DNA from: Prochlorococcus sp. MIT 0801
Lineage (GTDB): Bacteria; Cyanobacteriota; Cyanobacteriia; PCC-6307; Cyanobiaceae
DNA: 32,000 nt
NCBI RefSeq assembly: GCF_000757865.1
Contig: NZ_CP007754.1
Span: forward strand, 1,590,001-1,622,000
Reading direction: 5' to 3'
Positions 9,655 through 25,468 of the stretch are shown here, piece after piece (position 1 is the first letter of the stretch; each line of letters begins with the position of its first letter). Both the position numbers and the translations under genes were made by a program. Below the pieces are notes generated by a model that made no database searches, was not told the origin of the DNA, and saw only the letters and a program-made list of their open reading frames with translations.

Positions 9655-9924
9655 TTACTTATCTGCATCTTCTTTGCTTCTGTCTTTAAATAACAAAAAG
9701 CCGATAATTACTAATGCTGAAGTTTGGATTGCAAGGTCATTAATGGATACATTATCTCCCGCAATTACGTTGGTAACCATAATAAACAAGCCTAGGGCCG
9801 CTGACCCGAAGAGTGCAATCCAGACAGTTCTTCTTAATCCCCGATAAGGATTTTTAGTCTCCTTCAACAGTCGAGCTTTTAAATTTGGATCCAAATTGGA
9901 ATCAGGCTTATTAGAATTACTCAA
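9655..9924 (-). CDS. small membrane protein, DUF3493-like (family assigned from memory)
   Basis: The track ORF 9655-10020 runs into the tRNA, so only the part downstream of TTG 9924 (or TTG 9936) is plausible. It has two hydrophobic segments (VWIALFGSAALGLFIMV, SALVIIGFLLF) after a basic PYRGLRR motif. Confidence 0.55.
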   Translation of the reverse strand: MSNSNKPDSNLDPNLKARLLKETKNPYRGLRRTVWIALFGSAALGLFIMVTNVIAGDNVSINDLAIQTSALVIIGFLLFKDRSKEDADK

Positions 9925-9957
9925 AAATAAATTCAAAGATGATAACTTTATTCTAGT

Positions 9958-10029
9958 GCCGGTGTAGCTCAGGGGTAGAGCAACTGATTCGTAACCAGTA
10001 GGTCGGTGGTTCAATTCCACTCATCGGCA
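9958..10029 (+). tRNA. tRNA-Thr (anticodon CGU)
   Basis: Hand-folded cloverleaf. The acceptor stem GCCGGTG/CATCGGC has one G-T pair. D arm GCTC-AGGGGTA-GAGC. Anticodon loop TT-CGT-AA. T arm GGTGG-TTCAATT-CCACT. Discriminator A. CCA is not encoded. Confidence 0.9.
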
Positions 10030-10279
10030 TATAGTTATTAAAGGGCTTTAGAAGGAATTTGCTTCAGAGAAGGTGACCTTAATTAAAGTTTTTATTAAAA
10101 TTTTTCTTCTTTTATAAAAACTTATAGAAGACTAAGATCCTTTCTCAAAAATCAACTGTGTCCAATGATTCTAGTAAAAGCGTCTAGTTATTCTGTTCAT
10201 AACGAAAGTCATCTCGATATGTTAGGGTCTTAGCGCTGTAAATGTATGTCATCGGTTTTTACCCTTACAAATAAAGGTT

Positions 10280-11026
10280 ATGACTTCTACTGCTCCTAAT
10301 GAGAATGTTAAGGATAATTTAAAAGATAAAATTTCTTGCAAATTAGTCTCAGAAATAATTCGTGAACGTATAAAAGCCAATGGAGCTAGATTCCATGCAA
10401 ATGATAATATTTCTGATTTCATTCAGCCTGGAGAACTAGAAACTCTTGAGAGAGAAGTTGCAACCAGAGTTAGAGATTTGCTGAAAACTTTATTGATTGA
10501 TGTTGATAATGACCACAACACTCAAGAAACTGCAGAACGAGTTTCCAGAATGTATCTAAATGAAGTATTTAAAGGCAGATATCACCCTCAACCTAAGGTT
10601 ACTAATTTTCCTAACGATAGAAATTTAGATGAGATCTATACACTTGGACCAATCACTGTTCGATCAGCATGTTCTCATCACTTTGTTCCAATTCTTGGAG
10701 ATTGCTGGATAGGAATAAAACCTGGAGAAAAAGTTATTGGAATATCGAAGTTTGCAAGAGTAGCTGATTGGGTCTTTTCTAGGCCACATATTCAAGAAGA
10801 AGCTGTCATGATTCTTGCTGATGAAATAGAGAGATTATGTGAACCCAAAGGTCTTGCAATCCTTGTTAAAGCACAACATTATTGTATGAAATGGCGAGGA
10901 GTCAAAGAGCCTGAAACCAGCATGATCAACTCAATCGTTAGGGGTGATTTTCGCCATGATGCAAGTTTGAAGCAGGAGTTCTTTGAACTTGTTAAGCAAC
11001 AATCCAATTTCGGTAAAAATTACTAA
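10280..11026 (+). CDS. folE: GTP cyclohydrolase I (FolE type IA, zinc-dependent type)
   Basis: 248 aa with QETAERVSRMY, the Zn-ligand motif CSHHFVP and the downstream HYCMKWRGV Cys. Confidence 0.93.
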   Translation: MTSTAPNENVKDNLKDKISCKLVSEIIRERIKANGARFHANDNISDFIQPGELETLEREVATRVRDLLKTLLIDVDNDHNTQETAERVSRMYLNEVFKGRYHPQPKVTNFPNDRNLDEIYTLGPITVRSACSHHFVPILGDCWIGIKPGEKVIGISKFARVADWVFSRPHIQEEAVMILADEIERLCEPKGLAILVKAQHYCMKWRGVKEPETSMINSIVRGDFRHDASLKQEFFELVKQQSNFGKNY

Positions 11027-11284
11027 ATCAAGTGGCATTTTGCGTGGTTACTTCAACTTTTGAATAAATCTCTAATAGCGAAAAAAGTGTTCTAATAACA
11101 AGGGAGGATAAGTAAGCAAAATTGCTTTAATAGCTATCAACTCAGACAGTTACATTATCAACTGTATGTCTAATCAATTATTGATGAAATGATCTATCTT
11201 TAACATAATCATTGTGCCCAACCGGAGGAGCAAAATATAAGGTAATCCTACTAAGACTTCAGCTTGAATGTTTTAACATGCAAA

Positions 11285-11305
11285 TGAAAATGGAAATCAT
11301 TTTCA
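11285..11305. promoter_or_regulatory. candidate Zur (Fur-family) operator upstream of the G3E-like/phosphoesterase operon
   Basis: Perfect 8-5-8 inverted repeat TGAAAATG-GAAAT-CATTTTCA, 41 nt upstream of ATG 11347 and just upstream of a TATATT -10-like hexamer (11316-11321). The stretch 11282-11303 matches 19458-19479 in the znuC/znuA intergenic region at 18/22 positions. Confidence 0.5.
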
Positions 11306-11346
11306 AAATGGATGTATATTCTTTTACGTTATTCCATATCTTTTGA

Positions 11347-12123
11347 ATGCGTCAGGTCTGGTTAATTTCAGGTCCTCCAGGTTGTGGTAAAACCAGTTGG
11401 ATCCTTGATAGATTAAAAAAACATAATAGTTCTTGTGGTTTTCTTCGCCTTTCAGGATTCTCAGAGAACTCTTTGGAACAGGCAAACTCTAATGAGATTG
11501 ATTATGTATTTCTTAAAGATCAAATACCACAGCTAATAGATTTATCTAAATCCTCTGATCAACTCTGTACTGATCAAGATGGTTTGTTGTTATTCATTGA
11601 GCTTCCACAGTTTTATCTTCCTAAGGAATCTGGATTGGCTGGCATTGATCGACGTGTTATTAACCAGCTTGAGAATTTAAAACTTATACCTGATAAATAT
11701 CTCCATTTTGGCCGTGACAATGAATTGCCAATTGTTGACACATTAAACTTTGAAAAGATCGAATCCTTAAGTATCAACCTCAATGAAACTGTTTGGGATC
11801 CGCCAAGCCTAAATACTTTTTGGTTTGAATTAGTTAATGGTGCATATGGAGATGTATATCGAGCAAAAGCCCTGATGAATATCATTGATGGACGATTTAT
11901 GTTGTTCAACTGGATTGTTAGTCGAAATGGTTCGCAGTTTTTGCAACTAAATAATTTTGCGCCACCCAAAGGGAGACCTCAGCGAATATCGCAACTAATT
12001 ATTCAAGGAAGAAATCTTGATTTTGTAAGCATTAAATCTACTGTCAATCTTTGTCTTGTAAATGATGCTGTATTGCAGTTCCATCAAGCTTCTCTTGGCA
12101 ATCAACAATTAGCAGCAACTTAA
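11347..12123 (+). CDS. degenerate G3E/COG0523-like P-loop protein (Walker A present, no CxCC or NKxD)
   Basis: 258 aa. N-terminal GPPGCGKTSW Walker A, a FIELP segment at the Walker-B position, and a C-terminal part resembling a CobW_C domain (..FWFELVNGAYGDVYRAKALMNI..ISQLIIQGRNLD). The family assignment rests on motif inspection only. Confidence 0.65.
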   Translation: MRQVWLISGPPGCGKTSWILDRLKKHNSSCGFLRLSGFSENSLEQANSNEIDYVFLKDQIPQLIDLSKSSDQLCTDQDGLLLFIELPQFYLPKESGLAGIDRRVINQLENLKLIPDKYLHFGRDNELPIVDTLNFEKIESLSINLNETVWDPPSLNTFWFELVNGAYGDVYRAKALMNIIDGRFMLFNWIVSRNGSQFLQLNNFAPPKGRPQRISQLIIQGRNLDFVSIKSTVNLCLVNDAVLQFHQASLGNQQLAAT

Positions 12124-12135
12124 TAAAGTTTACTT

Positions 12136-12951
12136 ATGAAACAAGCAGTTATCTCATGTTTACATGCCAACCTCCCTGCTGTAGAGGCTGTACTTAACGA
12201 CATCGATCGTCAAGGAATTGATATCATTACTTGCCTTGGTGACTTGGTGGGCTATGGACCGCATCCAAATGAGGTTGTGGAGTTAATAAGAGAGCGTAAT
12301 ATTGCCACCTGTCAGGGTTGTTGGGACGAAGATGTTGTCGATGGACTTGATGCCTGTGATTGTAGCTATCCCTCCCAACTTGCCGAAAGACGTGGACACG
12401 AAGCTCACAAATGGACTACTACAAAGTTGTCGAATAAAAATAAGAGTTTTCTAGCTAGCCTTCCAAAATCTATACGTAGAAATAAATTGCTTTTTGTTCA
12501 TGGCAGCCCTAATAGTCAACATGAATATCTCCTTCCAGATATGGATGCATTTGCAGCGTTAGAAAGAGTAGAAATGGCTGGAGCTGAAACTTTATTTTGT
12601 GGTCATACACACTTACCTTATCTTCGTGAATTAGGAAATGGAACAATTCGAGTAAGTCTTAAAAACAGTCCTAAGAATAAATTAGAAAATAAAGAAATGA
12701 ATTTACCTATGAGAAGGATAGTCAATGCAGGGTCTGTTGGCGAACCGCGTCATGGAGGGATTAATGCTACCTATGTGATTTACGACGATGAAACAAACAA
12801 TATTGATATAAAAGAAGTTTCATATGATATTAATCGAACCTGCAAAGCTATCATAGAAGTTGGGCTACCTCATATATTTGCATGGCGCCTGAGTCATGGC
12901 TTTGAATTTGCAGAACTGGCCGAGGATGCTAGTCATGTGTGTGAAAGATGA
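12136..12951 (+). CDS. metallophosphoesterase (YfcE/MJ0936-like) with Cys substitutions at canonical metal-ligand positions
   Basis: 271 aa. Motif II GDLVGYG, motif IV FVHGSP and motif V CGHTHLPY are intact. Motif I reads SCLHAN (Asp replaced by Cys). Motif III reads GCWDED instead of GNHD/GNCD. There is an extra DACDC pair. Confidence 0.85.
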   Translation: MKQAVISCLHANLPAVEAVLNDIDRQGIDIITCLGDLVGYGPHPNEVVELIRERNIATCQGCWDEDVVDGLDACDCSYPSQLAERRGHEAHKWTTTKLSNKNKSFLASLPKSIRRNKLLFVHGSPNSQHEYLLPDMDAFAALERVEMAGAETLFCGHTHLPYLRELGNGTIRVSLKNSPKNKLENKEMNLPMRRIVNAGSVGEPRHGGINATYVIYDDETNNIDIKEVSYDINRTCKAIIEVGLPHIFAWRLSHGFEFAELAEDASHVCER

Positions 12952-13661
12952 TTGAACGCTGGGCATTAATAAGTGGTTTAAAGGGCGACCTTGAGACTTA
13001 TGCACTTATTCAAAAGAATTTAAAAAAAATTCAAGGAGATATAAAATTATTTGTTTTGGGTGACATGGTAGGAGCAGCAAGAAATTGCGATGCATTGATC
13101 GACCGTCTAATCAATCCTCTCCCTGGCGATTTCAAGCCCCAATGTATTTATGGTTGGTGGGAAGATCAGCTACTTGCAGAACGGGGTTATCGTGGAGAAC
13201 AAAAGGCAGATGCTTTAAGACTAAATGAAGGAGAAAGCGTAGTTAAAGCTCTTGTAAATGCGGTTGATCCGTATTATTTAAATTGGTTGGCTTCTCTTGA
13301 ATTTGGATTTGTCGAATTGGATTGCGGATTGATTCATGGAAGTTCTAAAGACGTTGGAGATTCTCTAACAAAGGACACACCTCCTCTTATCCTTTTGGAC
13401 CGTCTTACTCGACTTGGTGTGAATAGATTGTTTACAGCAAGAAGTGCTCAACAATTTCATCTTGAATTGACTGACGCTGTAGTTAACTCATACGTCAAAG
13501 ATTTAGGTGGTAATCGTAAGCAAGAACAGAGAATGCCTAAGAGAGGAGTTATAGGAATTGGTGCTGGCGCTTATTACACTCTTTATGATGTTGGAAGTGA
13601 TAAAACTCACTTTCTTAATGTTCTTGATCAGCCTAAATCAACTGCAAGGGGATTTGGGTAA
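12948..13661 (+). CDS. metallophosphoesterase-like paralogue, apparently catalytically degenerate
   Basis: 237 aa. Its start overlaps the upstream stop (ATGA). It keeps GDMVG (motif II) and LIHGSS (motif IV). Motif I is ISGLKGD (no Asp or His), motif III is YGWWED, and no GHxH motif V is present. Confidence 0.7.
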   Translation: MIERWALISGLKGDLETYALIQKNLKKIQGDIKLFVLGDMVGAARNCDALIDRLINPLPGDFKPQCIYGWWEDQLLAERGYRGEQKADALRLNEGESVVKALVNAVDPYYLNWLASLEFGFVELDCGLIHGSSKDVGDSLTKDTPPLILLDRLTRLGVNRLFTARSAQQFHLELTDAVVNSYVKDLGGNRKQEQRMPKRGVIGIGAGAYYTLYDVGSDKTHFLNVLDQPKSTARGFG

Positions 13662-13682
13662 TTAAATTTTTAAAAACTTCTG

Positions 13683-14165
13683 TTATAGAAAAGAGGGATC
13701 TAAAAGTGATGGTCGATAAGAAAGCACAAATGGACGATGCTCACTTTTAACTGCCACAATCACATCTTCTCCCGTATGCCAAATCCATTGTTGCTGAGGA
13801 GAGCCACCTTCAACATTAACACTTGTACCAACTGGAGGACCAAAGCGATACCTTAATCCTGCCAAGACTTCAGTCATGTTTTCATTGTCTATTTCATAAG
13901 CCAGTTGCTTTAATCCGTCCTCATTTTCAATTCGAACTCGAAGAACCTCTACAGGTAATCCACTGATCTGAATATCTTTAACCTCGAAAAGATTCCGGGT
14001 TATTTCTTCTTTGATGGGACTGAAAGATATACCAAGATGGCTCTCTATCTTTTGAAGGTCCATTCCCCACGTCAAACCCTCAACACATGCAAATACTGGC
14101 TGAGAACAAATCTGAATAAGAAAAGCAAAAACTATAATCAAAATATATTTAGAAGCCTTATTCAT
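13683..14165 (-). CDS. secreted protein or possible lipoprotein of unknown function
   Basis: 160 aa with a clear signal peptide (KYILIIVFAFLIQICSQPVFA/C). I did not recognise a domain. Confidence 0.6.
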   Translation of the reverse strand: MNKASKYILIIVFAFLIQICSQPVFACVEGLTWGMDLQKIESHLGISFSPIKEEITRNLFEVKDIQISGLPVEVLRVRIENEDGLKQLAYEIDNENMTEVLAGLRYRFGPPVGTSVNVEGGSPQQQWIWHTGEDVIVAVKSEHRPFVLSYRPSLLDPSFL

Positions 14166-14257
14166 AGTTGAATTGAACCCTTATTAATCTTGATAATAGA
14201 TCTTTAAATATAAATAGTCATTATTGTCACTCTTCAGACATTAGATCTCCACTATAG

Positions 14258-14280
14258 AGATAATATCTTTTATATTATCT
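14258..14280. promoter_or_regulatory. AT-only 9-5-9 inverted repeat with GATAAT/ATTATC arms (Fur-box-like operator or weak hairpin)
   Basis: AGATAATAT-CTTTT-ATATTATCT is a perfect inverted repeat. It lies between the porin 3' end (14320) and the start of the 13683-14165 gene. Confidence 0.3.
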
Positions 14281-14319
14281 ACGCAATTAGCTTAATCAAA
14301 GTATAAGCAAACATTAGCA

Positions 14320-15518
14320 TCAGAACTCGAAAGTGGTTTTCACCAAAGCTCCATTAACGTCCTCTTTACCATCTTGTTCAATAACAAAAATAGCTGGAGT
14401 AACTGTGACGCTATCGTTCACCGTAAAATCATAAAAAGCTTCCCAAGCCAAAGGATCATCATAACCACTGTCATCTCTATGAGTTTCGGCTGTTCCAATA
14501 CCAAATCCAAACTTATTTCCCTCAATAAACGCATCATTCCATAGGAAGCCAACAGACCATGTATTGCCATCCTCCACCTTATTCATTGCAGTATCAGGAT
14601 TATCCTCGTTTTCAGGATTCTTCCAACCAATACCAGCACTCAAGCTGTAGTCGTCTCCGAATTGATAGCTACCACTAATTCCATAAGACGAGTAATCATT
14701 CACATCAGGAGAATTATCAGTATTCCCGTTATCCGCTTGGGTATAGGCCGCTGCAAGAGTAAATTTATCATCAACCCATGCCAACTGAGTCGTTATGTGA
14801 TCTTTACCTTCATCAGTTAAAAAACCAATCGAAGAATTTGATGCGTCTTCTGAAACGAAGAGAGCAGAAGCAACTAATTTGTCATGAGACCAAGTAATAC
14901 CAGCACCCGCTCCCATTTTTTTGGAATAAGTATCATTGGCCCCTGCCTGGTTTAGTACAAATAAAACTCCATCGCTTGGGTAATCACTTGGCCACACACC
15001 AAGTAAATCATCTTGACGAAGCTTGGGACCAAAAGTTACTTGAATATCATCTCCCAAGGAAACTGATAATAAGCCTTGTGAAGTTCCAACGAATCACTAC
15101 TACTAAAAGCAGTATCTAATCTTGCCTCACCCATCATTCCGAAGGGTTCCATCATGCCAAAATTACCTATCCGAACAGCAGTTTTAAGCATGTCTTGACC
15201 TGTGAAACTGGTCATAAACATTAACTTTGTATCGTAGTGAAAAACTGTCCCATCCTTGTCCTCAGAAGTAGACATTCCACCCATTCCACCCATTCCACCC
15301 ATTCCACCCATTCCAGAATCACTTACGCCATCTATTCCACCCAAAACAAAAGTTGTTTTTCCCATAAACATAGTTGAAGGATATGAATCTCCCATATTCA
15401 TGTGACCACCATGGTGATCATGATGACCTTTGTTCTTTTCACTTCCTGCTTCAACAGCCATTGGAGCCATGAAACCTAAGGCAGTAGGGATTGAAAGTAA
15501 TTGAGCAAAGAGCCTCAT
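14320..15518 (-). pseudogene. outer-membrane porin (cyanobacterial OprB-like beta-barrel, no SLH domain seen) split by a 1-nt frameshift
   Basis: ORFs 15036-15518 and 14320-15057 are the N- and C-terminal parts of one protein. The N part has a signal peptide, HHDHHGGH and (GMG)n. The C part is Gly/Asp/aromatic-rich and ends ..TTFEF, a terminal Phe typical of OM barrels. Adding one T to the minus-strand cagtttccTTggg (about 15056-15060) would give ..YYQFPLGDDIQVTFGPK... Confidence 0.75.
15273..15315 (-). repeat. 9-nt tandem repeat (CATTCCACC, ~4.8 copies) encoding (GMG)n in the porin
   Basis: Direct reading: cattccacc occurs 4 times followed by cattcca. It is in frame and encodes GMGGMGGMGGMGGM on the minus strand. 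Confidence 0.9.
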
Positions 15519-15528
15519 AGGTCTAAAG

Positions 15529-15560
15529 AACTAGCAAAACTAGCAAAACTAGCAAAACTA
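15529..15560. repeat. 9-nt tandem repeat (AACTAGCAA, ~3.5 copies) immediately upstream of the porin start codon
   Basis: aactagcaa occurs 3 times followed by aacta, beginning 11 nt from the porin ATG (15518, minus strand). It therefore lies in the porin 5' leader/RBS region. Confidence 0.9.
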
Positions 15561-15658
15561 TTCATGTGTCATGAAGATAACTTCTCAGGCTTGTTAAAGG
15601 CATTAAATATGTGTCTTTAGATACAAAGAATTTTTTTTAGTCTTTGCCAGAAAAAAGC

Positions 15659-15681
15659 TGAAAATCAATTTCCATCAAAAT
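15659..15681. promoter_or_regulatory. weak, half-site-level match to the Zur-box-like motif in the porin / WMPC-lipoprotein divergent region
   Basis: TGAAAATCAATTTCCATCAAAAT shares TGAAAAT with both stronger boxes. Its reverse complement (..ATGGAAATTGATTTTCA) resembles 11290-11305 (ATGGAAATCATTTTCA) with a 1-nt insertion. It is followed by TATAGT. Confidence 0.25.
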
Positions 15682-15818
15682 ATAGTCTCACAAAGAAGAA
15701 ATAAAGGATAGTTGGATGATTTAATTACTTTTCTGTTCTAATTTTTCTGAAATACTCAATGACAAAGTTCTAGGCTTGATTAAGCTAAAGACTAGATTTA
15801 CTAGCTAAAACTAGATAA

Positions 15819-16076
15819 ATGGACAAACTTAAGCCTATTCTCTCCACAATTATTCTTTCTTTATCATTTTCACTAATAGGATGTTCAGATAATAGTCAAA
15901 CACAAGGTACTCCCTCTCTTTTTGAGACAAAAATAGAAGCCGAAAAAGCAGCCAAGGATTTCAATTGCACTGGAGCTCATAAAATGGGTGACAAATGGAT
16001 GCCTTGTAAAAGTCATTCTGCTCATGAAGATAAAGAGAATAACAACTCAAGAAATGAACATCACCATCATCACTAG
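15819..16076 (+). CDS. small lipoprotein with a Cys/His/Met 'WMPC' mini-domain (DUF3721-like, from memory) and a C-terminal His5 tail
   Basis: 85 aa. Lipobox SLIGC. Motif FNCTGAHKMGDKWMPCKSH. Ends NEHHHHH. Confidence 0.75.
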   Translation: MDKLKPILSTIILSLSFSLIGCSDNSQTQGTPSLFETKIEAEKAAKDFNCTGAHKMGDKWMPCKSHSAHEDKENNNSRNEHHHHH

Positions 16077-16091
16077 ATTTTCGAACAATAA

Positions 16092-16535
16092 ATGACAACC
16101 AACAATAGTACTAATCAAAAAGAGATCGAAGGTCCTTCGCATTGTGGAAGCAAACCAAAAAAAATTGCATTTGGCATAGCACCACTTGGATTCATTTCCA
16201 TTGGAATTGTTCCCATGGGGATTGTTAGCATTGGAATTGTTCCCATGGGTGTCGTTTCTATTGGCGCTGTAGCCATGGGAGTATTGAATGCATCAATAAT
16301 CGGTATGGGAATATTTTCTGCCGGAATAACAACCATGGGTCTAAAGGTATGGAGTCCAGAAAACAATGCTCTTCAGGAGTCAATCAATCGTTCTAATTCT
16401 TCGTCTTCAAAAAATATATATGCATATCCAACCAAAGCTCAGGCAGAGATCGAAGCCAAAAAGATCGGATGCAATGGTGTCCATAAGATGGGTAAATTAT
16501 GGATGCCTTGTGCAATCCATATAAACCCTAACTAA
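16092..16535 (+). CDS. membrane protein with six tandem Gly/Met decapeptide repeats plus a C-terminal WMPC (DUF3721-like) mini-domain
   Basis: 147 aa. Residues ~27-86 read FGIAPLGFIS IGIVPMGIVS IGIVPMGVVS IGAVAMGVLN ASIIGMGIFS AGITTMGLKV. The C-terminus IGCNGVHKMGKLWMPCAIH is paralogous to the upstream gene. It lies 15 nt downstream of the previous stop. Confidence 0.7.
   Translation: MTTNNSTNQKEIEGPSHCGSKPKKIAFGIAPLGFISIGIVPMGIVSIGIVPMGVVSIGAVAMGVLNASIIGMGIFSAGITTMGLKVWSPENNALQESINRSNSSSSKNIYAYPTKAQAEIEAKKIGCNGVHKMGKLWMPCAIHINPN
16199..16249 (+). repeat. exact 21-nt direct repeat with a 30-nt period inside the decapeptide-repeat region
   Basis: cattggaattgttcccatggg occurs at 16199-16219 and again at 16229-16249. 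Confidence 0.9.
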
Positions 16536-16667
16536 TCTTGAAGTAATTAAGAATTTAAAGTTGTGGTATAAAGTTCTTGGCAATATATCTAAAAAAGAAT
16601 AAATTCATCCCCCTGTTTTGTAACAAATCAGGATTTAATTAACTTTCAAAAAGTGATCTTAATTGGT

Positions 16668-17285
16668 CTAAGAATATATATCTTCAACTAACTTTGAACC
16701 CTTTTCGCAAATTTGCTCCTGTGAAGGGAACTCTTTATCGGAGCAACAACATTCTCCTTTATCTGAATTGTTGATCCAATTAATAATTCCTGTTCGAATT
16801 GGTTGAGGACATACGTCTCCTTCTTTGAGGTGATTAATTTCTTCGCTTGTTAAAGGATCAGCATGTTCAATAAAAAGAGACTCTTTAAGCCTAAAAGAAC
16901 ATGTCTCATTCCATTGTTCAAAACAATTTATATGGTTTATAAAATCATTCCATGCTTCTTTCATTGATCTATATCCCTTCCTTTTTAACTCTTTGCTGAA
17001 AACAGCTTTAATGAATTCATTGAAATTCTGCAATTCATGAGGTGTAAAAGATGGTGTGACATGGCTTGCATAATTAGGAAAGTCAAGTTTCTTCTCTATT
17101 GATTGCAGTCTTTGTTCAATCGTGTGAAATCGAGAATCTATCGATTCAACAGGTATATTATCTATTTGATTAACAAAACAATCAGAGACATAACTAACCA
17201 ATGATTTTCCCGAAATCCTCGCACTCTCTTTAATCTTTTCTAAAAGTTTTGGGTCAATACTTACATTGAGTTGCGTTCTCTTCAT
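16668..17285 (-). CDS. ribbon-helix-helix (CopG/Arc-like) N-terminal domain protein with a Cys-rich C-terminal region
   Basis: 205 aa. The N-terminus KRTQLNVSIDPKLLEKIKESARISGKSLVSYVSDCF fits a strand-helix-helix RHH pattern. The C-terminal half carries NCFEQWNETC, DVCPQP and GECCCSD...ICEKG. Confidence 0.6.
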   Translation of the reverse strand: MKRTQLNVSIDPKLLEKIKESARISGKSLVSYVSDCFVNQIDNIPVESIDSRFHTIEQRLQSIEKKLDFPNYASHVTPSFTPHELQNFNEFIKAVFSKELKRKGYRSMKEAWNDFINHINCFEQWNETCSFRLKESLFIEHADPLTSEEINHLKEGDVCPQPIRTGIINWINNSDKGECCCSDKEFPSQEQICEKGSKLVEDIYS

Positions 17286-17446
17286 GAGTTAATCAATGAA
17301 AGGGTGGAAAATATCCAAGTAATTAATATTTTATTGAATTCAAAAACATATCGTTACCATTTTTAGATTTCTTGATCTTTAAGAAACTATCTCTTTTCAT
17401 CCATCCACAAAGCAACTCTTAGAAGCAATTAAGAGTAAAAATAAAT

Positions 17447-18232
17447 CTATCTATTGTTTGGTAGCAAAATCAATGAAATTACACAAAGAACACTAATAAG
17501 AGGGCCAGGAGGCAAATTCATAACCATAGCAAGCGAAAAACCAATGATCGATAAAGCTAATCCAAATATGGAAGATCGAACCATAGCAACCCTCAGAGAT
17601 CTAGCTTTCTGTAAACCCAACAAAGTTGGTGTTGAGAGTAACGCAATCACAAGGATGACCCCAACTGCTGACATTGAGCTCACAATGACAAGTGCAGTGG
17701 TAAATCCCAGAGCTAAATTTAAAAAAGACACATTAACGCCACTTGAAGCAGCTCCTTCTGGGTCTAAACCAATATGAACAAGCTTGTCGTAACCAAAAAG
17801 CATTAAGCAAATGAATGCCGAGAACGCAATCAAAGTTCTTAACAAATCGCTCAAATTTGAAGTTAATAAATCTCCAAACAAAACAGCCTCCAAATCAATC
17901 CTGATTCCAAGTAGAGGTATAAGCAAAACACCAAGTCCCATCGAACCAGCAAGAATTGTATTCATTACAGCTTCATAATTTTGATTTTTTTTATTTGTCA
18001 AACTCTCTGCTGCAATAGCTCCCACTAATCCGCTTAAGACACCTCCAATAGATGGGTCAATCCCAAGCGCCATAGCCAAGGCAAGTCCTGGCAAAACACA
18101 GTGTGAAATTAAATTTACTTGAAGAAGCCTTTTATGAGTTATCAATACAGTTCCCATGGCAGGGCAAAGCACTCCTGAAAAAGAAGTTATCAGAAGAGGA
18201 ATGATCCACCAATTTGTATTGATAAAAGACAT
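17447..18232 (-). CDS. znuB: zinc/manganese ABC transporter permease (ABC-3 family)
   Basis: 261 aa, polytopic, with ZnuB/ABC-3-type sequence (..VLITHKRLL..ISHCVLPGLALA..). It sits in a cluster with zur, znuC and znuA. Confidence 0.9.
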   Translation of the reverse strand: MSFINTNWWIIPLLITSFSGVLCPAMGTVLITHKRLLQVNLISHCVLPGLALAMALGIDPSIGGVLSGLVGAIAAESLTNKKNQNYEAVMNTILAGSMGLGVLLIPLLGIRIDLEAVLFGDLLTSNLSDLLRTLIAFSAFICLMLFGYDKLVHIGLDPEGAASSGVNVSFLNLALGFTTALVIVSSMSAVGVILVIALLSTPTLLGLQKARSLRVAMVRSSIFGLALSIIGFSLAMVMNLPPGPLISVLCVISLILLPNNR

Positions 18233-18285
18233 TAAGCAAATGATTTAGTATGGTCAGTTAGACAGATCAAATTAAGATCTTGCTA

Positions 18286-18687
18286 ATGAATACAAGCAAG
18301 CCTGACATAACTAAGAGACAGCAACAACTTCTCAATGAACTCAAGAGATGTCCTGATGAGTTGAGTGGACAAGAACTGCATAGAAAATTTCATAATGGTC
18401 AAAAGGCAATGGGTCTGACGACTGTATATAGGAACTTGCAAGTGTTAGTAAAGCAAGGTTTGATCCGCTCGAGACACCTCCCTAACGGCGAGGTCCTTTA
18501 TGCCCCAGTTGAAAGAGATATTCATCATTTAACTTGCGTAAGCTGCGGGGAAACTACTCGATTGCAGGGATGCCCCGTCAAAACAATGCACATACCCCAG
18601 AAAGCCTCTAAAAAATTTGAGCTGTTGTTTCATACTCTTGAATACTTTGGCCTCTGCCAAAATTGTTCCCAAGGATTGAATGCTTGA
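18286..18687 (+). CDS. zur: Fur-family metalloregulator, Zur-like
   Basis: Winged-helix region (GLTTVYRNLQVLVKQGLI), then HHLTCVSCG and LCQNCSQ CxxC pairs typical of Fur/Zur. Divergent from znuB. The track ORF begins at TTG 18280; ATG 18286 is preferred. Confidence 0.88.
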   Translation: MNTSKPDITKRQQQLLNELKRCPDELSGQELHRKFHNGQKAMGLTTVYRNLQVLVKQGLIRSRHLPNGEVLYAPVERDIHHLTCVSCGETTRLQGCPVKTMHIPQKASKKFELLFHTLEYFGLCQNCSQGLNA

Positions 18688-18714
18688 TCGAATTGCATAA
18701 ATATCAATACACAA

Positions 18715-19410
18715 CTATATTTTCCATCTCAGATAATTAATTGAACTAAGTTTTTCCTGCACCTCTTCAGGGTTACCAGAAGCCAAAATAATCTTATCTA
18801 GAACAACAACCTTGTCATAAGCATTTAATGATGTTCCCCAATCGTGACTACTGACGAACACTGTCAATCCAGAATCAGCTAACTGACGGATGATTAATAG
18901 GAAATCTTCCTTTGCGGGGGGATCAAATGCGGCACAAGGTTCATCAAGTAGAAATATTTCGGCAGGATTCATCAAGGTTTTTGCGAGTAATGCTCTTTGT
19001 TGCTGACCACCGGATAAAGAATCAAGTCGCCTTTTTGCTAAATGAGATATTCCAACACGTTGAAGAGCCGCTTCTAATTCACAACAAGTTGATTTCGAAT
19101 GATTGACTCGACCTAAAGAAACTAATCCTTCAACAGTAATTGGAAAATTCCAATTAAGCTTCCCCCTCTGAGGCATTAAAGCCACTTGAGATCGATTATT
19201 TCTAAGTGGTTTTCCGTCAACAGTAATTTCTCCTTGATCCGGCTTACTACTTCCTTGCAGCAAGCTTAATAATGTGGACTTACCAGCACCATTGGGACCA
19301 ACAAGAGCAGTCAAAGTACCTTGCTCAAGCTTAAGAGAAACCTTGCTTAAAGCAGGTTTGATTTTACTCGAATAGGAATATGTCACATTTTCAGCAATCA
19401 AACTAGACAT
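18715..19410 (-). CDS. znuC: zinc ABC transporter ATP-binding protein
   Basis: Walker A GPNGAGKST, signature LSGGQQQR, Walker B FLLDEP. ATG at 19410; the track adds one TTG codon at 19413. Confidence 0.92.
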   Translation of the reverse strand: MSSLIAENVTYSYSSKIKPALSKVSLKLEQGTLTALVGPNGAGKSTLLSLLQGSSKPDQGEITVDGKPLRNNRSQVALMPQRGKLNWNFPITVEGLVSLGRVNHSKSTCCELEAALQRVGISHLAKRRLDSLSGGQQQRALLAKTLMNPAEIFLLDEPCAAFDPPAKEDFLLIIRQLADSGLTVFVSSHDWGTSLNAYDKVVVLDKIILASGNPEEVQEKLSSINYLRWKI

Positions 19411-19460
19411 CAATTAGAGGATTTGCTGACAAGAAACATAATATACTTGCCAAGACCAAA

Positions 19461-19479
19461 TGAAAATGATTATCGTTTT
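19461..19479. promoter_or_regulatory. probable Zur box in the znuC/znuA divergent promoter region
   Basis: TGAAAATGATTATCGTTTT contains an 8-1-8 near-palindrome, AAAATGAT-T-ATCGTTTT, with 7/8 arm complementarity. It lies 21 nt upstream of the znuA ATG and 48 nt upstream of the znuC start. Fur-family operators are typically AT-rich palindromes at this location. Confidence 0.6.
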
Positions 19480-19499
19480 AGATACGCTAAATATTCTTG

Positions 19500-21017
19500 A
19501 TGTCGAATTTTTCTAATCAGTCCAAAAAGGCTAAACCCATAATCAATAAAACATTTCTCAAAAGTTCTCTTGTTGCTGGAGCATTTTTATTTTCTGGAAT
19601 TAATCAAAGTGCACAGGCAAATTCAAAACCAATTGTTGCCGTAGAGCCATTAGTCTGCGATGTCGTTTCTGCGATTGCACCACCTTCAACACCTGTAACC
19701 TGCTTAATTGATAGAAAACAAGATGTTCATGATGTCAAAATCACTCCAAGGCAAGCTCAAACACTAAAGAGTGCAAACCAAGTATTTACTCTTGGTTCAG
19801 AGATGACCCCTGCAATGAAAAAATGGTTAGATAATCCTTTAACTGTTGTTGTCGGCGTAAGTGCAATAGAAATAGACGATCATCATGACGATCACGATGA
19901 TCATTCAGCTTCTAAGGATGATGACCACGATGATCATTCAGCTGCTAAACATGACGATCATGATGACCATGATGATCATAGCGATAGCCACGGAGAAGGA
20001 GATTTTGAATGGGCTGGTGTTTTTGATCTTTCAGCAGGAACATACAAATGGTCTTTTGCCAAAGTTGATGGAGACTATGCTGATCCTGCAATGAAAATGG
20101 TTATTCTCAACTCTGGTGATATTGAAGCATCAGAAGAGCTTGCTAAAGAATTATTAGGTTCTAAGAATTCAGAAACCAAACGCAATAATGACAAACTTGT
20201 TGCGCAGGAAAAAGCTTATTTTCTTTCATTCAATGAAAAGAGAGATACCACAACATTTACTGTAGAAATCAAAAAAGCTGGTAAATATGCATTCTTTACT
20301 GAGCATATGCCTTTTGAATTTGAAGCCGACGAACATTTCTTTAAGGATATTTCAGGCGACGATGTTGAACCGATTGCTCAAGTCCCAGATGAAGGCGATC
20401 ACCATCATCACCATGACCATGGTGGGCTAGATCCTCATATCTGGCATGACCCTCATAACATCATCAAGATGGGAAATGTCATTTCTAAAAATATCAATAA
20501 GAAAATTTCCTTCTTTGACAGAGAAACAAAAAAAGTTTTAAAAGAGAGGACTGAAGCCGTTAATTCTATTTTGGAAGATCTCGATTTATGGACTCAAAAA
20601 CAAGTTGCCACAATTCCTACTGATCGAAGGACAATCGTTTCTAAGCACAAAGCGATGGAATATTACGGAGATGCATTTGGCTTGAAGACTTTGAGTCTAT
20701 TAGATTTCCTTGGTGATTCTTCCAGCCTTAGACCAGAGACTATTTCAACGGTAATAGCTGAGTTGAAAGAAGAAAACGTGAACGTATTATTCGCTGAGCA
20801 AAAGCCTCCTTCCAAGCTATTGAAAAATCTGAGCAGACAAACTTCCACCCCTATTGCAAGAAATCAGATCTTTGTTGATGGTCTAATGCTAGAGGGGAAT
20901 ACTGTTTCAGTAGCAGTACACAACACATGTACAATTGTGGATTCACTTGGTGGAGAATGTGACGAGAAAGAGGGTGATGAACTTGAGAGTAAATGGAATG
21001 ATTTAACTAACCCTTAA
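19500..21017 (+). CDS. znuA: zinc ABC transporter substrate-binding protein with a split His/Asp-rich loop and a ~105-aa inserted domain
   Basis: About 505 aa, versus the ~300-340 aa I recall as typical for ZnuA. It has a signal sequence, cluster A-I SBP motifs (DVHDV, GLDPHIWHDP, KHKAMEYYG) and His/Asp tracts DDHHDDHDDH...HDDHDDHDDH and DHHHHHDH. These tracts flank an extra domain starting at FEWAGVF. Confidence 0.9.
   Translation: MSNFSNQSKKAKPIINKTFLKSSLVAGAFLFSGINQSAQANSKPIVAVEPLVCDVVSAIAPPSTPVTCLIDRKQDVHDVKITPRQAQTLKSANQVFTLGSEMTPAMKKWLDNPLTVVVGVSAIEIDDHHDDHDDHSASKDDDHDDHSAAKHDDHDDHDDHSDSHGEGDFEWAGVFDLSAGTYKWSFAKVDGDYADPAMKMVILNSGDIEASEELAKELLGSKNSETKRNNDKLVAQEKAYFLSFNEKRDTTTFTVEIKKAGKYAFFTEHMPFEFEADEHFFKDISGDDVEPIAQVPDEGDHHHHHDHGGLDPHIWHDPHNIIKMGNVISKNINKKISFFDRETKKVLKERTEAVNSILEDLDLWTQKQVATIPTDRRTIVSKHKAMEYYGDAFGLKTLSLLDFLGDSSSLRPETISTVIAELKEENVNVLFAEQKPPSKLLKNLSRQTSTPIARNQIFVDGLMLEGNTVSVAVHNTCTIVDSLGGECDEKEGDELESKWNDLTNP
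19875..19991 (+). repeat. repetitive coding DNA for the His/Asp-rich loop (18-nt exact repeat with a 33-nt period)
   Basis: cacgatgatcattcagct occurs at 19893-19910 and at 19926-19943. The surrounding sequence is gat/cat-rich and encodes (D/H)n. Confidence 0.85.
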
Positions 21018-21074
21018 CTTTTACAAATACAATCCTGTCTACATTGATAAAATGCAGACAGTATTGACACAAAA

Positions 21075-21392
21075 ATGTTTCCAACTAAAGGGTTTAACGC
21101 CTATAGACAACACTGGGAAGATCAGGCAAGTTTTATGGATAAAGCGCCATGGGATAGAGATAAAATCTTAAAACTTACTATCTCAACTGACTTCGATGAC
21201 AATTTAAAAGAACTTCAATTTTCAAATCATTCGCTTAAGAAAGAAAATGGAAAAAATACAGTAAGATTAAAAGTTCCATACAATTATTTTGAGCTAGATG
21301 ATTTTGAATCAAAGTCCCTAGATTTATTGGGAATACAAGAGAATTGGCTAACTGATATTTCTTTTGACAACTCTCATTGTTCACATTATTAG
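21075..21392 (+). CDS. hypothetical protein (105 aa) between znuA and the COG0523 gene
   Basis: ORF only, with no recognised domain or signal peptide. It ends ..NSHCSHY. It fits the gap between neighbouring genes on the same strand. Confidence 0.4.
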   Translation: MFPTKGFNAYRQHWEDQASFMDKAPWDRDKILKLTISTDFDDNLKELQFSNHSLKKENGKNTVRLKVPYNYFELDDFESKSLDLLGIQENWLTDISFDNSHCSHY

Positions 21393-21400
21393 TTAAAGAA

Positions 21401-22783
21401 ATGAGCATTAAGCAAAAAGTACCGGTTACCATATTGACTGGTTTCCTAGGATCTGGAAAAACTACTCTACTTAATCGAATCTTGAGCGAAGAACACGGTA
21501 AAAAAATAGCTGTTATTGAAAATGAATATGGTGAAGTTGGTATTGATCAAGGATTAGTCATCAATGCTGATGAAGAGGTCTTCGAGATGTCGAATGGTTG
21601 CATTTGCTGCACCGTTCGGGGTGATCTTATTCGTGTACTTGGAAACCTCATGAAGAGGCGAGACAAATTTGACTATGTATTAGTTGAAACTACTGGCCTT
21701 GCTGATCCTGGTCCTGTCGCTCAGACATTCTTTATGGACGATGAAATCCGTGAGGAGTTTTCACTTGATGGAATAGTCACACTTGTTGATGCAGCCCATA
21801 TAGAGCAACAACTTGGTCGAAGTGATGAGAGTTCGGAGCAAGTTGCCTTTGCTGACGTCCTTGTCCTAAATAAAACCGATCTAGTTTCAGATGAATCACT
21901 CGACAACTTAGAATCACGGCTACGCGATATGAATCGTATGGCTCGTGTCATACGCAGTAAACAAGCAGACGTCTCAATTGATACTGTGCTAAATCTAAGT
22001 GCTTTTGATTTAGATCAAGTACTTCAGCGTCGTCCAACTTTTCTTGAACCAGAATACCCATTTGAGTGGACAGGTGTTTTTTCACTTGAAAAAGGTCGCT
22101 ATGAACTTACGCTCGAAGAAGGTCCAGACCCCACAATGTCTCTCGTCCAGTTATTAGATCAAGGTAAAGACGAGACAGCTCTTAACACAGGTGCTGAATC
22201 ATGCGTGAGACTCTACGCAGAACAAGAACAACTTATAAATCCAGGGGATTTGGTTCCAATCGGCAAGCATGTGAGCCTTCAACTTCAATCCGAAGGGACT
22301 AAGTCCTTCTTCATAGATGTTGATAAGGCAAGGGATATAGGTCTATTCACGCAACATACAGCTGAAGAATTTAATATGAAATTAACGAAAGTAAATACTC
22401 CTTCTACAGACCATATAGATAATGATCAGAACATCTCTACAATTTCTCCAATAGCTGAGAGGGTTTGGGTAGCTGAACACGAACATGATGACGAAGTAGG
22501 TTCATTCGCTATCGAGCGAGACGGTAACGTAGATCCAGAAAAACTCAATAGATGGCTAAGTCGACTTTTGTCTGAGAAAGGTGTGGATATATTTCGCACT
22601 AAAGGTTTCATTAGTTATGCGGGTGAATCTAAGCGAATAGTTTTTCAAGGAGTACACATGCTCTTCACAGCACAACCTGATAAAGAATGGGGCAATGAAC
22701 CTCGCCGTAACCAACTCGTCTTTATCGGTAGAAATCTTGATGAAGTAGAAATGAGAAAGGAGTTTGATAAATGTCTGGTATAG
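21401..22783 (+). CDS. COG0523 (CobW/YjiA/ZigA-type) G3E metallochaperone GTPase with an inserted ~105-aa domain
   Basis: GFLGSGKTTLLN (Walker A), ENEYGE, the GCICCTV metal motif, VETTGLADP, LNKTD, and a C-terminal CobW_C-like region (..RTKGFISYAG..IVFQGVH..). Between the G domain and the C-domain lies an insert starting at FEWTGVF, followed by AEHEHDDE. ATG 21401 is preferred over the track start at 21377. Confidence 0.9.
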   Translation: MSIKQKVPVTILTGFLGSGKTTLLNRILSEEHGKKIAVIENEYGEVGIDQGLVINADEEVFEMSNGCICCTVRGDLIRVLGNLMKRRDKFDYVLVETTGLADPGPVAQTFFMDDEIREEFSLDGIVTLVDAAHIEQQLGRSDESSEQVAFADVLVLNKTDLVSDESLDNLESRLRDMNRMARVIRSKQADVSIDTVLNLSAFDLDQVLQRRPTFLEPEYPFEWTGVFSLEKGRYELTLEEGPDPTMSLVQLLDQGKDETALNTGAESCVRLYAEQEQLINPGDLVPIGKHVSLQLQSEGTKSFFIDVDKARDIGLFTQHTAEEFNMKLTKVNTPSTDHIDNDQNISTISPIAERVWVAEHEHDDEVGSFAIERDGNVDPEKLNRWLSRLLSEKGVDIFRTKGFISYAGESKRIVFQGVHMLFTAQPDKEWGNEPRRNQLVFIGRNLDEVEMRKEFDKCLV

Positions 22784-23844
22784 AAGCATTTAGTCCAAAG
22801 GGAATGCTTCATGAAAGTTGGTCTGCTCAAGCTAGCGACTACGCGATTGTCTGCGGCTGGGCACTACAAGGTAAAACTTTTTTAGTAGGTGACGTCGCTG
22901 GTGGGCTTTATGCATTTGAGGGAATATCTGGAAAGCTCATTTGGCAAATAAAAGACATACATAAAGGCGGCTTACTCGCAATGTCTATACATCCAAATGG
23001 AAAGACTTTTGCAACTGCTGGCCAAGATGGACATGTAAATATATGGGAAAGCCAAGAGGGTACGTCAACTAAAACTATAGAACTTGGGAAAGGTTGGGTT
23101 GAGCACATCAAGTGGTCCCCAGACGGAAAATTTTTAGCTGTAGTTTTTACTAAATACGTCTATGTTTTTGATGATCAAGGTCAAGAACATTGGCGATCAG
23201 AGGAGCATCCCAGCACTGTCAGCGCGATTGCTTGGTCTAATTCAAATGAATTAGCAACAGCATGCTATGGCCAAGTAACTTTTTTTGATGTCGTAAACGA
23301 CAAGATCAATCAAAAGTTGGAATGGAGAGGCTCACTAGTATCTATGGTGCTTAGTCCAGATGGTGACATAGTGGCATGCGGCAGCCAAGATAATTCTGTT
23401 CATTTCTGGCGTCGTTCAACTGATCAAGATTCAGAGATGACAGGCTACCCAGGTAAACCAAGCCACCTAGCTTTTGATCAAACCGGCACAGTCCTTGCTA
23501 CTGGGGGTAGTGATCGAGTGACGGTTTGGAGTTTTCAAGGCGATGGTCCTGAGGGCACTGTACCAGGAGAGTTAATGCTTCATACGGAACCCATTTCATG
23601 CCTTTCTTTCTCACATAGCGGGATGCTTTTAGCTTCTGGCGCGAGAGATGGTTCAGTTTTTTCTTGGTTTCTCCAAAAAGATGGTCAGGGTGATCCAGTT
23701 GGTGGTGCATTTGCAGGTGACCTTGTAAGCCAAATCGCTTGGCATCCTGATGACACTGCCTTGGCTGCAATAAATGCAAACGGAGGAATTACGGTTTGGG
23801 AGTTTAAGGTTCGGACGAAAACCTCACCTCAAGGAATCGGATAA
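22771..23844 (+). CDS. WD40-repeat (beta-propeller) protein translationally coupled to the COG0523 gene
   Basis: 357 aa with repeated WD-type units (DGHVNIWE, DNSVHFWR, DRVTVWSF, DGSVFSWF, GGITVWEF). Its ATG lies 13 nt inside the 3' end of the COG0523 ORF. Confidence 0.85.
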   Translation: MSGIEAFSPKGMLHESWSAQASDYAIVCGWALQGKTFLVGDVAGGLYAFEGISGKLIWQIKDIHKGGLLAMSIHPNGKTFATAGQDGHVNIWESQEGTSTKTIELGKGWVEHIKWSPDGKFLAVVFTKYVYVFDDQGQEHWRSEEHPSTVSAIAWSNSNELATACYGQVTFFDVVNDKINQKLEWRGSLVSMVLSPDGDIVACGSQDNSVHFWRRSTDQDSEMTGYPGKPSHLAFDQTGTVLATGGSDRVTVWSFQGDGPEGTVPGELMLHTEPISCLSFSHSGMLLASGARDGSVFSWFLQKDGQGDPVGGAFAGDLVSQIAWHPDDTALAAINANGGITVWEFKVRTKTSPQGIG

Positions 23845-25197: not shown

Positions 25198-25468
25198 TTA
25201 ATAGAAAAATATTCTTACACAGTTATTTTTCAAGATATAGACAAGATTGTTCCATCTCTCCATAGAGTCCATAAGCAATAATTTTTACCCAATCAGACTT
25301 TATGCTTGAAAAGACAAAAAGTTTCTGATCTAAATTGATAATAATTTTTGAAGAAACTTCAACAGATTGAGAATGAATTGTGTATTATCTACAAACGTTC
25401 AGCTCTATCCGAGTCGCAGTTAGATTCAAGCCATGGAACGGGGACTTGAACAATGACAATTTTTTCTA

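Follow-up and report, generated by a model that had tools for sequence, protein, structure and literature searches.

The zur neighbourhood of a low-light Prochlorococcus: a known zinc-limitation cluster beside a Zur-boxed cassette and an envelope gene block, probably a composite of separate modules

In Prochlorococcus sp. MIT 0801, the regulatory gene zur lies within a long series of genes whose products carry metal-related signatures. We analysed a stretch of 32,000 nucleotides (nt) containing this series (contig NZ_CP007754.1, positions 1,590,001 to 1,622,000; hereafter the window), in which a sequence-only reading had recognized one metal-homeostasis supercluster that would form a complete envelope-spanning system for the acquisition and allocation of a scarce metal, with zinc as the likely metal. 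The window belongs to LLI, a low-light clade of Prochlorococcus, has a GC content of about 38%, and encodes a ZnuB that shares 99% identity with its counterpart in the single-cell genome AG-402-P16 and 98% with the one in strain MIT 1012. All of the genes listed in the earlier reading are present where it placed them. Comparison with related loci (designated here by L numbers) leads us, with moderate confidence, to regard the region as a composite of three modules, namely a known zinc core (module A, 17.4-23.8 kb), a three-gene cassette with its own Zur box (module B, 11.3-13.7 kb), and a separately controlled block of envelope genes (module C, 13.7-17.3 kb).

Module A contains znuB (17447-18232, minus strand), which encodes an ABC-3 permease (PF00950, E 1.2e-42), zur (18280-18687, plus strand; FUR family, PF01475), znuC (18715-19413, minus strand; ATPase, ABC_tran, PF00005) and znuA (19497-21017, plus strand), so that a ZnuA-type binding protein, an ABC-3 permease and an ABC ATPase are encoded together as a complete ZnuABC set. 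The Zur protein of the window is a close homologue of the solved and experimentally characterised Zur of Synechococcus WH8102 (SynZur, 7NE9; E 3.4e-44, residues 4-130). ZnuA, with 506 amino acids (aa), matches the Pfam ZnuA family (PF01297) in two stretches, has a loop rich in His and Asp, and is interrupted by a β-sandwich domain (nt 19989-20372). Its NCBIfam matches (AztC, MntC, ZnuA) all fall below their cut-offs; a specificity for zinc would agree with the loop and with the Zur box. Further along the plus strand lie the small open reading frame (ORF) orf105 (21075-21392), which corresponds to the 'X' of the published znuA-X-COG0523-WD40 operon and is kept in LLI and in a second low-light group, a gene for a COG0523 GTPase (21401-22783, with ATG 21401 as the most likely start), and its partner gene, which encodes a WD40 β-propeller protein recognized by a WD40 profile (22771-23844). 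The COG0523 protein belongs to subfamily 5, or branch 1a, and contains cobW (PF02492, E 1e-61) and CobW_C (PF07683, E 3e-26) domains, an NGCICCT motif that fits GCxCC, and an insert (nt 22049-22411); it also matches YjiA (E 1.6e-63).

Zur box 1 (TGAAAATGATTATCGTTTT, 19461-19479) lies between the divergent znuC and znuA. Potential Zur boxes were scored with a 19-nt matrix derived from 14 distinct znuC/znuA boxes of related loci, and the window maximum of 200 shuffled sequences, with a 95th percentile of 16.4 bits, served as the null distribution. Box 1 scores 29.0 bits and a second box, in front of module B, scores 19.2 bits, which bears out the two operator copies proposed from sequence, and nothing in the other intergenic regions of 11.3-23.8 kb reaches 8 bits. 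Promoter-like hexamers overlap both boxes, in a promoter scan that overall did not rise above chance. The set znuB-zur-znuC-znuA-COG0523-WD40 was found in all 80 Prochlorococcus loci of a sample centred on znuB, and box 1 is kept across all Prochlorococcus clades compared (consensus TGAAAAYGATTATCRTTTT). The supplement of Haas 2009 (PMC2770081) lists "znuC <> znuA-X-COG0523-5-WD40" with a Zur site for SS120 and MED4, Barnett 2012 (PMC3323870) describes the same cluster, the pairing of COG0523 with WD40, and the insert of about 150 aa of branch-1a COG0523 proteins, and Mikhaylina 2022 (PMC9337993) reported Zur- and zinc-dependent regulation of the orthologous cluster in WH8102. With this published cluster the window shares the gene order, the box position, ORF X, the COG0523 class with its insert, the WD40 gene and the embedded zur; the core shows no essential difference, and what the window has in addition are neighbours specific to LLI and, 7 kb away, a second operon with a box. 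Module A is the already-known picocyanobacterial zinc-limitation cluster. By this model, zinc-loaded Zur would bind the palindrome between znuC and znuA and repress both the ABC importer and the znuA-orf105-COG0523-WD40 operon, and low zinc would lift this repression.

Several details of the znu loci accompany this arrangement. The gene zur is antisense between znuC and znuB (18233-18714), with spacers of only 47 nt on the znuB side and 27 nt on the znuC side, and znuB would have either its own very short promoter region or be expressed by read-through from znuC across zur. A hairpin with an 11-bp stem (21035-21061) lies between the znuA stop and the orf105 start. In HL and other clades (L037-L080), a second Zur-like box (TAAAAACGGTTTTCATTTC, 15-20 bits) is found after znuA, about 49 nt upstream of the COG0523 gene; these clades are without orf105, whereas in LLI orf105 is present and there is no such box. 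Two tandem znu clusters occur in L036 (800-14302), and several genomes of the second low-light group (L028, L032, L033) encode a ZnuA without the inserted domain. Extra strong Zur boxes of 24-25 bits (L113 1359-1379, L052 3153-3171, L072 54-118) adjoin unannotated sequence or lie about 1.1 kb past the WD40 gene, and may mark further Zur targets.

The inserts of ZnuA and of the COG0523 protein proved to be related. Residues of about 165-292 in ZnuA are homologous to residues of about 225-345 in COG0523 (E 2e-8), defining a domain of about 125 aa that is covered by no Pfam model. An exhaustive search recovered 408 clusters of this domain in four arrangements (as an insert of ZnuA, N-terminal in ZIP transporters, within COG0523 proteins, and as secreted stand-alone proteins with His-rich tails); a homologue search by the ZnuA insert alone gave mostly gene fragments. 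When modelled with a 48-sequence alignment, the domain is predicted to be a β-sandwich with one helix (predicted local distance difference test score, pLDDT, 95.3) that has no significant neighbour in the PDB. This is the usable model, since a single-sequence prediction of ZnuA reached a pLDDT of only 35 and was rejected. Barnett 2012 (PMC3323870) called the COG0523 insert unassignable, and the passages of that paper on inserts and ZnuA make no mention of a ZnuA carrying the same domain.

The first gene of module B, P-loop258 (11347-12123, plus strand), encodes an NTPase domain with a Walker A motif (GPPGCGKT) and, after it, a CobW_C-like domain. Its family comprises proteins of about 260 aa from Prochlorococcus and from both marine and freshwater Synechococcus; GPPGCGKT is invariant in this family, and Pfam CobW_C (PF07683) is recognized in 19 of 26 members (best E 4e-8). 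The window protein has no Pfam match itself; its C-terminal portion can be aligned to the CobW_C region in the COG0523 protein of the window (E 5e-6). None of the 26 members matches the cobW G-domain (PF02492), the family alignment has neither CxCC nor NKxD and, of the G3E G-domain motifs, only Walker A, and comparison of the family with the PDB gave solely Walker-A matches to AAA ATPases. Of the two G3E-type proteins claimed for this region, the long COG0523 protein stands, and P-loop258 has the CobW_C-like domain without a recognizable cobW G-domain.

The two genes that follow had been described as atypical metallophosphoesterases, a description that our analysis supports. MPE1 (12136-12951, plus strand) is a calcineurin-like phosphoesterase (Metallophos_2, PF12850, E 8e-20) that shares with the YfcE, 3RQZ and SapH-type phosphoesterases a full-length alignment (MPE1 against 3RQZ, a metallophosphoesterase from structural genomics, E 5e-27) and the motifs GD, HGSP and GHTH. 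It differs from them in that the canonical ligand set is not kept, Cys standing for two ligands (DxH has become CLH and GNHD has become GCWD), in its extra invariant Cys residues, in its DASHVCER end, and in the degenerate paralogue beside it. Both ligand substitutions are invariant in 18 orthologues, as are C59, C62, C73, C75 and the C-terminal DASHVCER, and the window protein is 70-76% identical to full-length orthologues of high-GC Synechococcus. The paralogue, MPE2 (12948-13661, plus strand; BLASTP E 5e-8 to MPE1), has a start that overlaps the end of MPE1 by 4 nt; it has no Pfam or NCBIfam match, DxH and GHxH are absent, and most catalytic motifs are lost. A reading of the cassette as a defence system was rejected, there being no PADLOC match, and ZepA (PMC10957091) and the diatom ZCRP-A/B proteins (PMC9010474) are unrelated to the proteins encoded here.

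The cassette is preceded by Zur box 2 (GAAAATGGAAATCATTTTC, about 11286-11305), a perfect 7-5-7 palindrome 42 nt upstream of P-loop258 that overlaps a -35-like hexamer (promoter-like site 11291-11320). Its minus-strand sequence (TGAAAATGATTTCCATTTTC) is almost the same as that of the published Zur box of bmtA in CC9311 (gtgaaaatgattcccatttc), and the box of the window is also present in L007 and L017. In about 30 loci from different Prochlorococcus and Synechococcus lineages, at unrelated positions, a Zur-box palindrome precedes the cassette or a COG0523 gene joined to the cassette front. The three genes occur together at unrelated positions in Synechococcus RCC307, an LLIV genome, a 1.79-Mb Prochlorococcus genome, several single-cell genomes and metagenome contigs, and the cassette stays whole in genomes of RCC307, LLIV, LLII/III-like and LLI types. 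A strict 13-nt Zur pattern (GA[AG]AA[CT][GC][AG]TT[ACT][CT]C), for which we estimate fewer than one chance match in the 190 kb scanned, matched only upstream of the P-loop gene or of a cassette-leading COG0523 gene, upstream of a detached MPE2, and in znu/COG0523/zur intergenic regions. A canonical COG0523 gene with the pattern upstream precedes the P-loop gene in L085, L087, L088 and L090, and in L085 this canonical, His-rich COG0523 gene overlaps the P-loop gene start by 4 nt. In L089, MPE2 is detached and has its own Zur box, and the placement of the pattern is repeated in L111, L113, L115 and L116. Among the 24 LLI loci with at least 5 kb beyond znuB, the cassette occupies this site in one (MIT 0916), and L007 keeps only its first 23 codons and the box.

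Because a Zur box stands upstream of it in about 30 loci of different lineages, the cassette is, on sequence grounds, a strong candidate member of the Zur regulon. It appears to be an undescribed one, as no description of the operon in this role was found in the literature searched. Its own Zur box lies over its promoter, and this portable three-gene operon would therefore most likely also be switched on by zinc scarcity. Because the cassette lies beside COG0523, znuABC, zur or WD40 in several lineages (L085, L087, L088, L090, L095), the earlier proposal, by which Zur controls a G3E-type protein together with its candidate clients, describes it well. Zur-controlled COG0523 chaperones and zinc-sparing paralogues are represented by YciC/ZagA with FolE in B. 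subtilis and by the Zur regulon of Anabaena (Napolitano 2012, summarised in PMC3323870). Like these systems, the cassette combines a CobW_C NTPase and candidate metalloenzyme targets in one operon behind a Zur box; unlike the YciC/ZagA-type COG0523 proteins, its NTPase is without the cobW G-domain signature, CxCC and NKxD, and its partners are Cys-substituted metallophosphoesterases. We infer that MPE1 and MPE2 form a catalytic and pseudo-catalytic pair with a thiolate-containing metal site, served by the CobW_C NTPase at zinc scarcity, in which case the NTPase would be devoted to inserting the metal into, or assembling, an enzyme used under zinc shortage. A more ambitious version is offered only tentatively, as we consider it possible but rather doubtful: the P-loop/CobW_C protein with MPE1 and MPE2 would be a hard-wired metallochaperone-client set, induced through Zur at low zinc in marine and freshwater picocyanobacteria, in which the NTPase loads a scarce or substitute metal into a binuclear Cys-for-Asp/Asn phosphoesterase, and, at the same time, the β-sandwich of ZnuA, COG0523 and ZIP proteins would be an unrecognised zinc-handling domain.

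Between the cassette and znuB, module C comprises genes for envelope and putative regulatory proteins with metal-ligand motifs. The first, sec160 (13683-14165, minus strand), is an ORF of 160 aa encoding a small secreted protein, probably a lipoprotein. It is followed by a porin gene (14320-15518, minus strand) whose product is a distant relative of the Som-type porins, with an N-terminal stretch containing HHDHHGGH and (GGM)n in place of the SLH domain. In the window, loss of one nucleotide near 15045 (TTCCT-TGGGAG, compared with TTCCTGTTGGAG in the intact L001) breaks this gene into two ORFs, and the gene is either a pseudogene or affected by a sequencing error. Its scores against NCBIfam por_somb/NF033921, the 'iron uptake porin' model, are 46.7 and 33.4 bits, and the cut-off is 100. 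The C-terminal β-barrel is homologous to that of the Som/OprB porins, and the orthologues in L036 and L103 are full Som porins with SLH, whereas the LLI porin has no SLH domain, carries the His-rich and (GGM)n N-terminus, falls below the family cut-off and, in the window, is frameshifted. Because the porin is disrupted, the complete envelope-spanning system proposed earlier is not intact here.

On the plus strand, the DUF3721a gene (15819-16076; PF12518, E 2.8e-19) encodes a lipoprotein with an LIGC lipobox, a Cys/His/Met mini-domain and a C-terminal HHHHH, and the DUF3721b gene (16092-16535) encodes GLTT-type Gly/Met repeats (PF01744) followed by DUF3721 (PF12518, E 8.9e-18). PF12518, present in both proteins, is a 33-residue Cys/His/Met domain, and no mention of DUF3721 was found in the literature searched. 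The last gene, RHH/Cys (16668-17285, minus strand), encodes a protein with a ribbon-helix-helix-like (RHH-like) N-terminus and a Cys-rich C-terminus, which has only a weak match to DUF6364 (E 0.002, below the cut-off) and no relative in the PDB. It carries the UniRef name 'Protein family PM-12' and was not found outside LLI; among the homologues listed, the best 120 are all at least 75% identical, and every organism-named one is from Prochlorococcus.

Module C lies in a stretch whose gene content, between tRNA-Thr and DUF3721a, is variable among LLI genomes. The tRNA-Thr(CGU) gene (9957-10030, plus strand; ARAGORN, Rfam) marks the edge of this stretch and overlaps the 5' part of a mechanically called DUF3493 ORF (9655-10020), so that the DUF3493 gene probably starts further in. 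Beside the cassette lies a folE-type gene for GTP cyclohydrolase I (10280-11026, plus strand; PF01227, E 3.8e-42). FolE is a known client of COG0523 in Bacillus. The folE-type gene of the window may be an accessory copy, since it matches the NCBIfam FolE models below all of their cut-offs and is missing at this site from 4 of the 24 LLI genomes. On the other side of module A, a glutamine-II riboswitch aptamer (25393-25450, plus strand; 66.8 bits) lies downstream of a 2OG-Fe(II) oxygenase gene.

Linkage of these left-hand genes to the core differs sharply between clades. In the 24 LLI loci, DUF3721a and DUF3721b are each present in 24, RHH/Cys in 23, the folE-type gene in 20, the porin in 19, sec160 in 12 and the cassette in 1. 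In 41 loci of other clades, sec160 is beside znuB in one (L030), the porin in one (L036), and the other left-hand genes in none. The linkage of DUF3721a, DUF3721b and RHH/Cys to znuB thus exists within LLI only. Synteny had been suggested as a check on whether the genes of 11.3-17.3 kb travel with zur/znuABC; the linkage holds in LLI for DUF3721a, DUF3721b and RHH/Cys, and fails for the cassette and for the other clades, which argues against one conserved supercluster.

The same gene families recur in other lineages in shuffled orders. One or more of sec160, porin and DUF3721 genes are beside the cassette in L082, L086, L089, L092, L103, L110, L111 and L113, and beside znuB in L030 and L036. 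For instance, sec160 orthologues (36-89% identity) lie beside the cassette or znuB in L030, L082, L092, L103, L111 and L113, and L113 carries, away from znu and in this order, the cassette, an intact porin, DUF3721a, DUF3721b and sec160. This recurrence suggests that the neighbourhood is more than chance. In other lineages, HupE/UreJ genes behind cobalamin riboswitches (L103 6606-6754, L111 4-146) adjoin the cassette, and genes of the DUF411 and DUF305 families, usually linked to copper, are also recurrent neighbours. In L103, the porin follows hupE on the same strand. The HupE, DUF411 and DUF305 neighbours point to cobalt, and possibly copper, and not only to zinc. As to the metal, zinc fits the core of Zur, ZnuABC, COG0523 and WD40 with its Zur box, and is one candidate among others for the middle block.

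The control elements of module C also appear to be its own. No Zur box was found upstream of the porin, DUF3721a, DUF3721b, RHH/Cys or sec160 genes in 26 LLI loci. A third candidate in the porin/DUF3721a intergenic region (15658-15680), which resembles the cassette box with a 1-nt insertion, was rejected; it scores below 8 bits and is kept in only five LLI loci. Instead, three copies of CTAG with a 9-nt period lie directly upstream of the porin start codon (15531-15552) and again directly upstream of the DUF3721a start codon (15792-15814). In the window, CTAG-N4-7-CTAG was observed 5 times against 1.1 expected; its intergenic occurrences are only those at the porin and DUF3721a starts, and one more lies inside infB. 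The repeats are kept in 19 aligned LLI porin/DUF3721a intergenic regions, account for 57 of the 75 such sites of the LLI loci, and are present in L113 too. The alignment of the 19 regions also revealed a TGTG-N8-TACA (GT-N10-AC) site (15610-15625), about 100 nt upstream of the porin start, whose outer bases are kept while the inner ones vary, a signature of the NtcA/CRP type. This site hints at nitrogen control or at a regulator of the CRP family, and the CTAG repeats may form an operator, perhaps for RHH/Cys, whose role as regulator is a guess. Module C would thus probably be controlled via the CTAG repeats and the GT-N10-AC site, possibly by the adjacent RHH protein, and its link to zinc is circumstantial.

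Several points weigh against this division into a zinc core, a Zur-controlled chaperone cassette and an independent envelope block. The N-domain of P-loop258 is not demonstrably of the G3E type, given the missing cobW Pfam match, and hhalign of the P-loop family against COG0523 aligned the C-terminal domain alone, at 9% probability. The phosphoesterases could be regulatory proteins or alarmone hydrolases instead of clients. Zur control of the cassette is a prediction from its box, and such predictions can mislead; RNA-seq of WH8102, a strain that may or may not carry the cassette, found only the znu cluster and bmtA (Mikhaylina 2022, PMC9337993). The adjacency of the cassette to zur may be accidental here, because the cassette is not at this site in 23 of 24 LLI genomes. 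As for module C, the Som-type porin beside znuB in L036 has a Zur-like box (15.3 bits) 33 nt upstream of its start, which suggests that Zur may control porins in certain clades, and some LLI porin/DUF3721a intergenic regions contain what looks like a decayed box.

Alternatively, the whole of 11.3-23.8 kb could be one integrated zinc system, in which the porin, DUF3721 and sec160 proteins would capture the metal in the envelope, ZnuABC would import it, COG0523 and the P-loop protein would allocate it, and all of them would respond to Zur directly or indirectly. The L036 porin fits such a system, as do the His-, Met- and Cys-rich motifs of the proteins and the recurrence of sec160, porin and DUF3721 by a Zur-boxed cassette or by znuB in independent lineages and different orders. 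Yet the genes of the middle block have no Zur boxes in LLI, different conserved elements occupy the porin/DUF3721a region, the linkage is missing from the 41 other-clade loci save for a single sec160 and a single porin, these neighbours are all absent from seven long-flanked cassette loci, and the porin of the window is frameshifted, so that we consider an integrated system quite improbable. The variability of the left flank suits an explanation of the opposite kind, by which the zinc core abuts a tRNA-side stretch that gathers genes for several trace metals, the cassette serving zinc, HupE in other lineages cobalt, and DUF3721, DUF411 and DUF305 possibly copper, and adjacency to zur is meaningless. 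The tRNA-Thr gene, the uneven presence of the folE-type, porin, sec160 and cassette genes among the 24 LLI loci together with the deletion remnant in L007, and the occurrence of the same genes elsewhere with cobalamin-riboswitch HupE, DUF411 and DUF305 all agree with such accretion, and, from general coordination chemistry, Cu(I) would be a suitable ligand partner for the Met-rich tracts and for the Cys/His/Met motif in DUF3721. We nevertheless think accretion unlikely, as the cassette adjoins COG0523, znuABC or zur in at least five further lineages and as DUF3721a, DUF3721b and RHH/Cys are present in all or all but one of the LLI loci and are thus not variable within the clade. The composite of three modules, which places a Zur-boxed cassette and an envelope block under other control beside a conserved core, is therefore the reading that we retain.

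On this composite reading, the apparent supercluster consists, outside its core, mostly of genes that are either confined to one clade or mobile. It is still an open question how Prochlorococcus and Synechococcus manage with zinc at picomolar levels, and clients of COG0523-type chaperones are known in very few cases. The cassette offers a directly testable chaperone-client candidate, and its products might serve as biomarkers by which metatranscriptomes and metaproteomes of the ocean reveal zinc stress. The domain found in ZnuA, COG0523 and ZIP proteins alike suggests that marine phytoplankton share a module for handling zinc.

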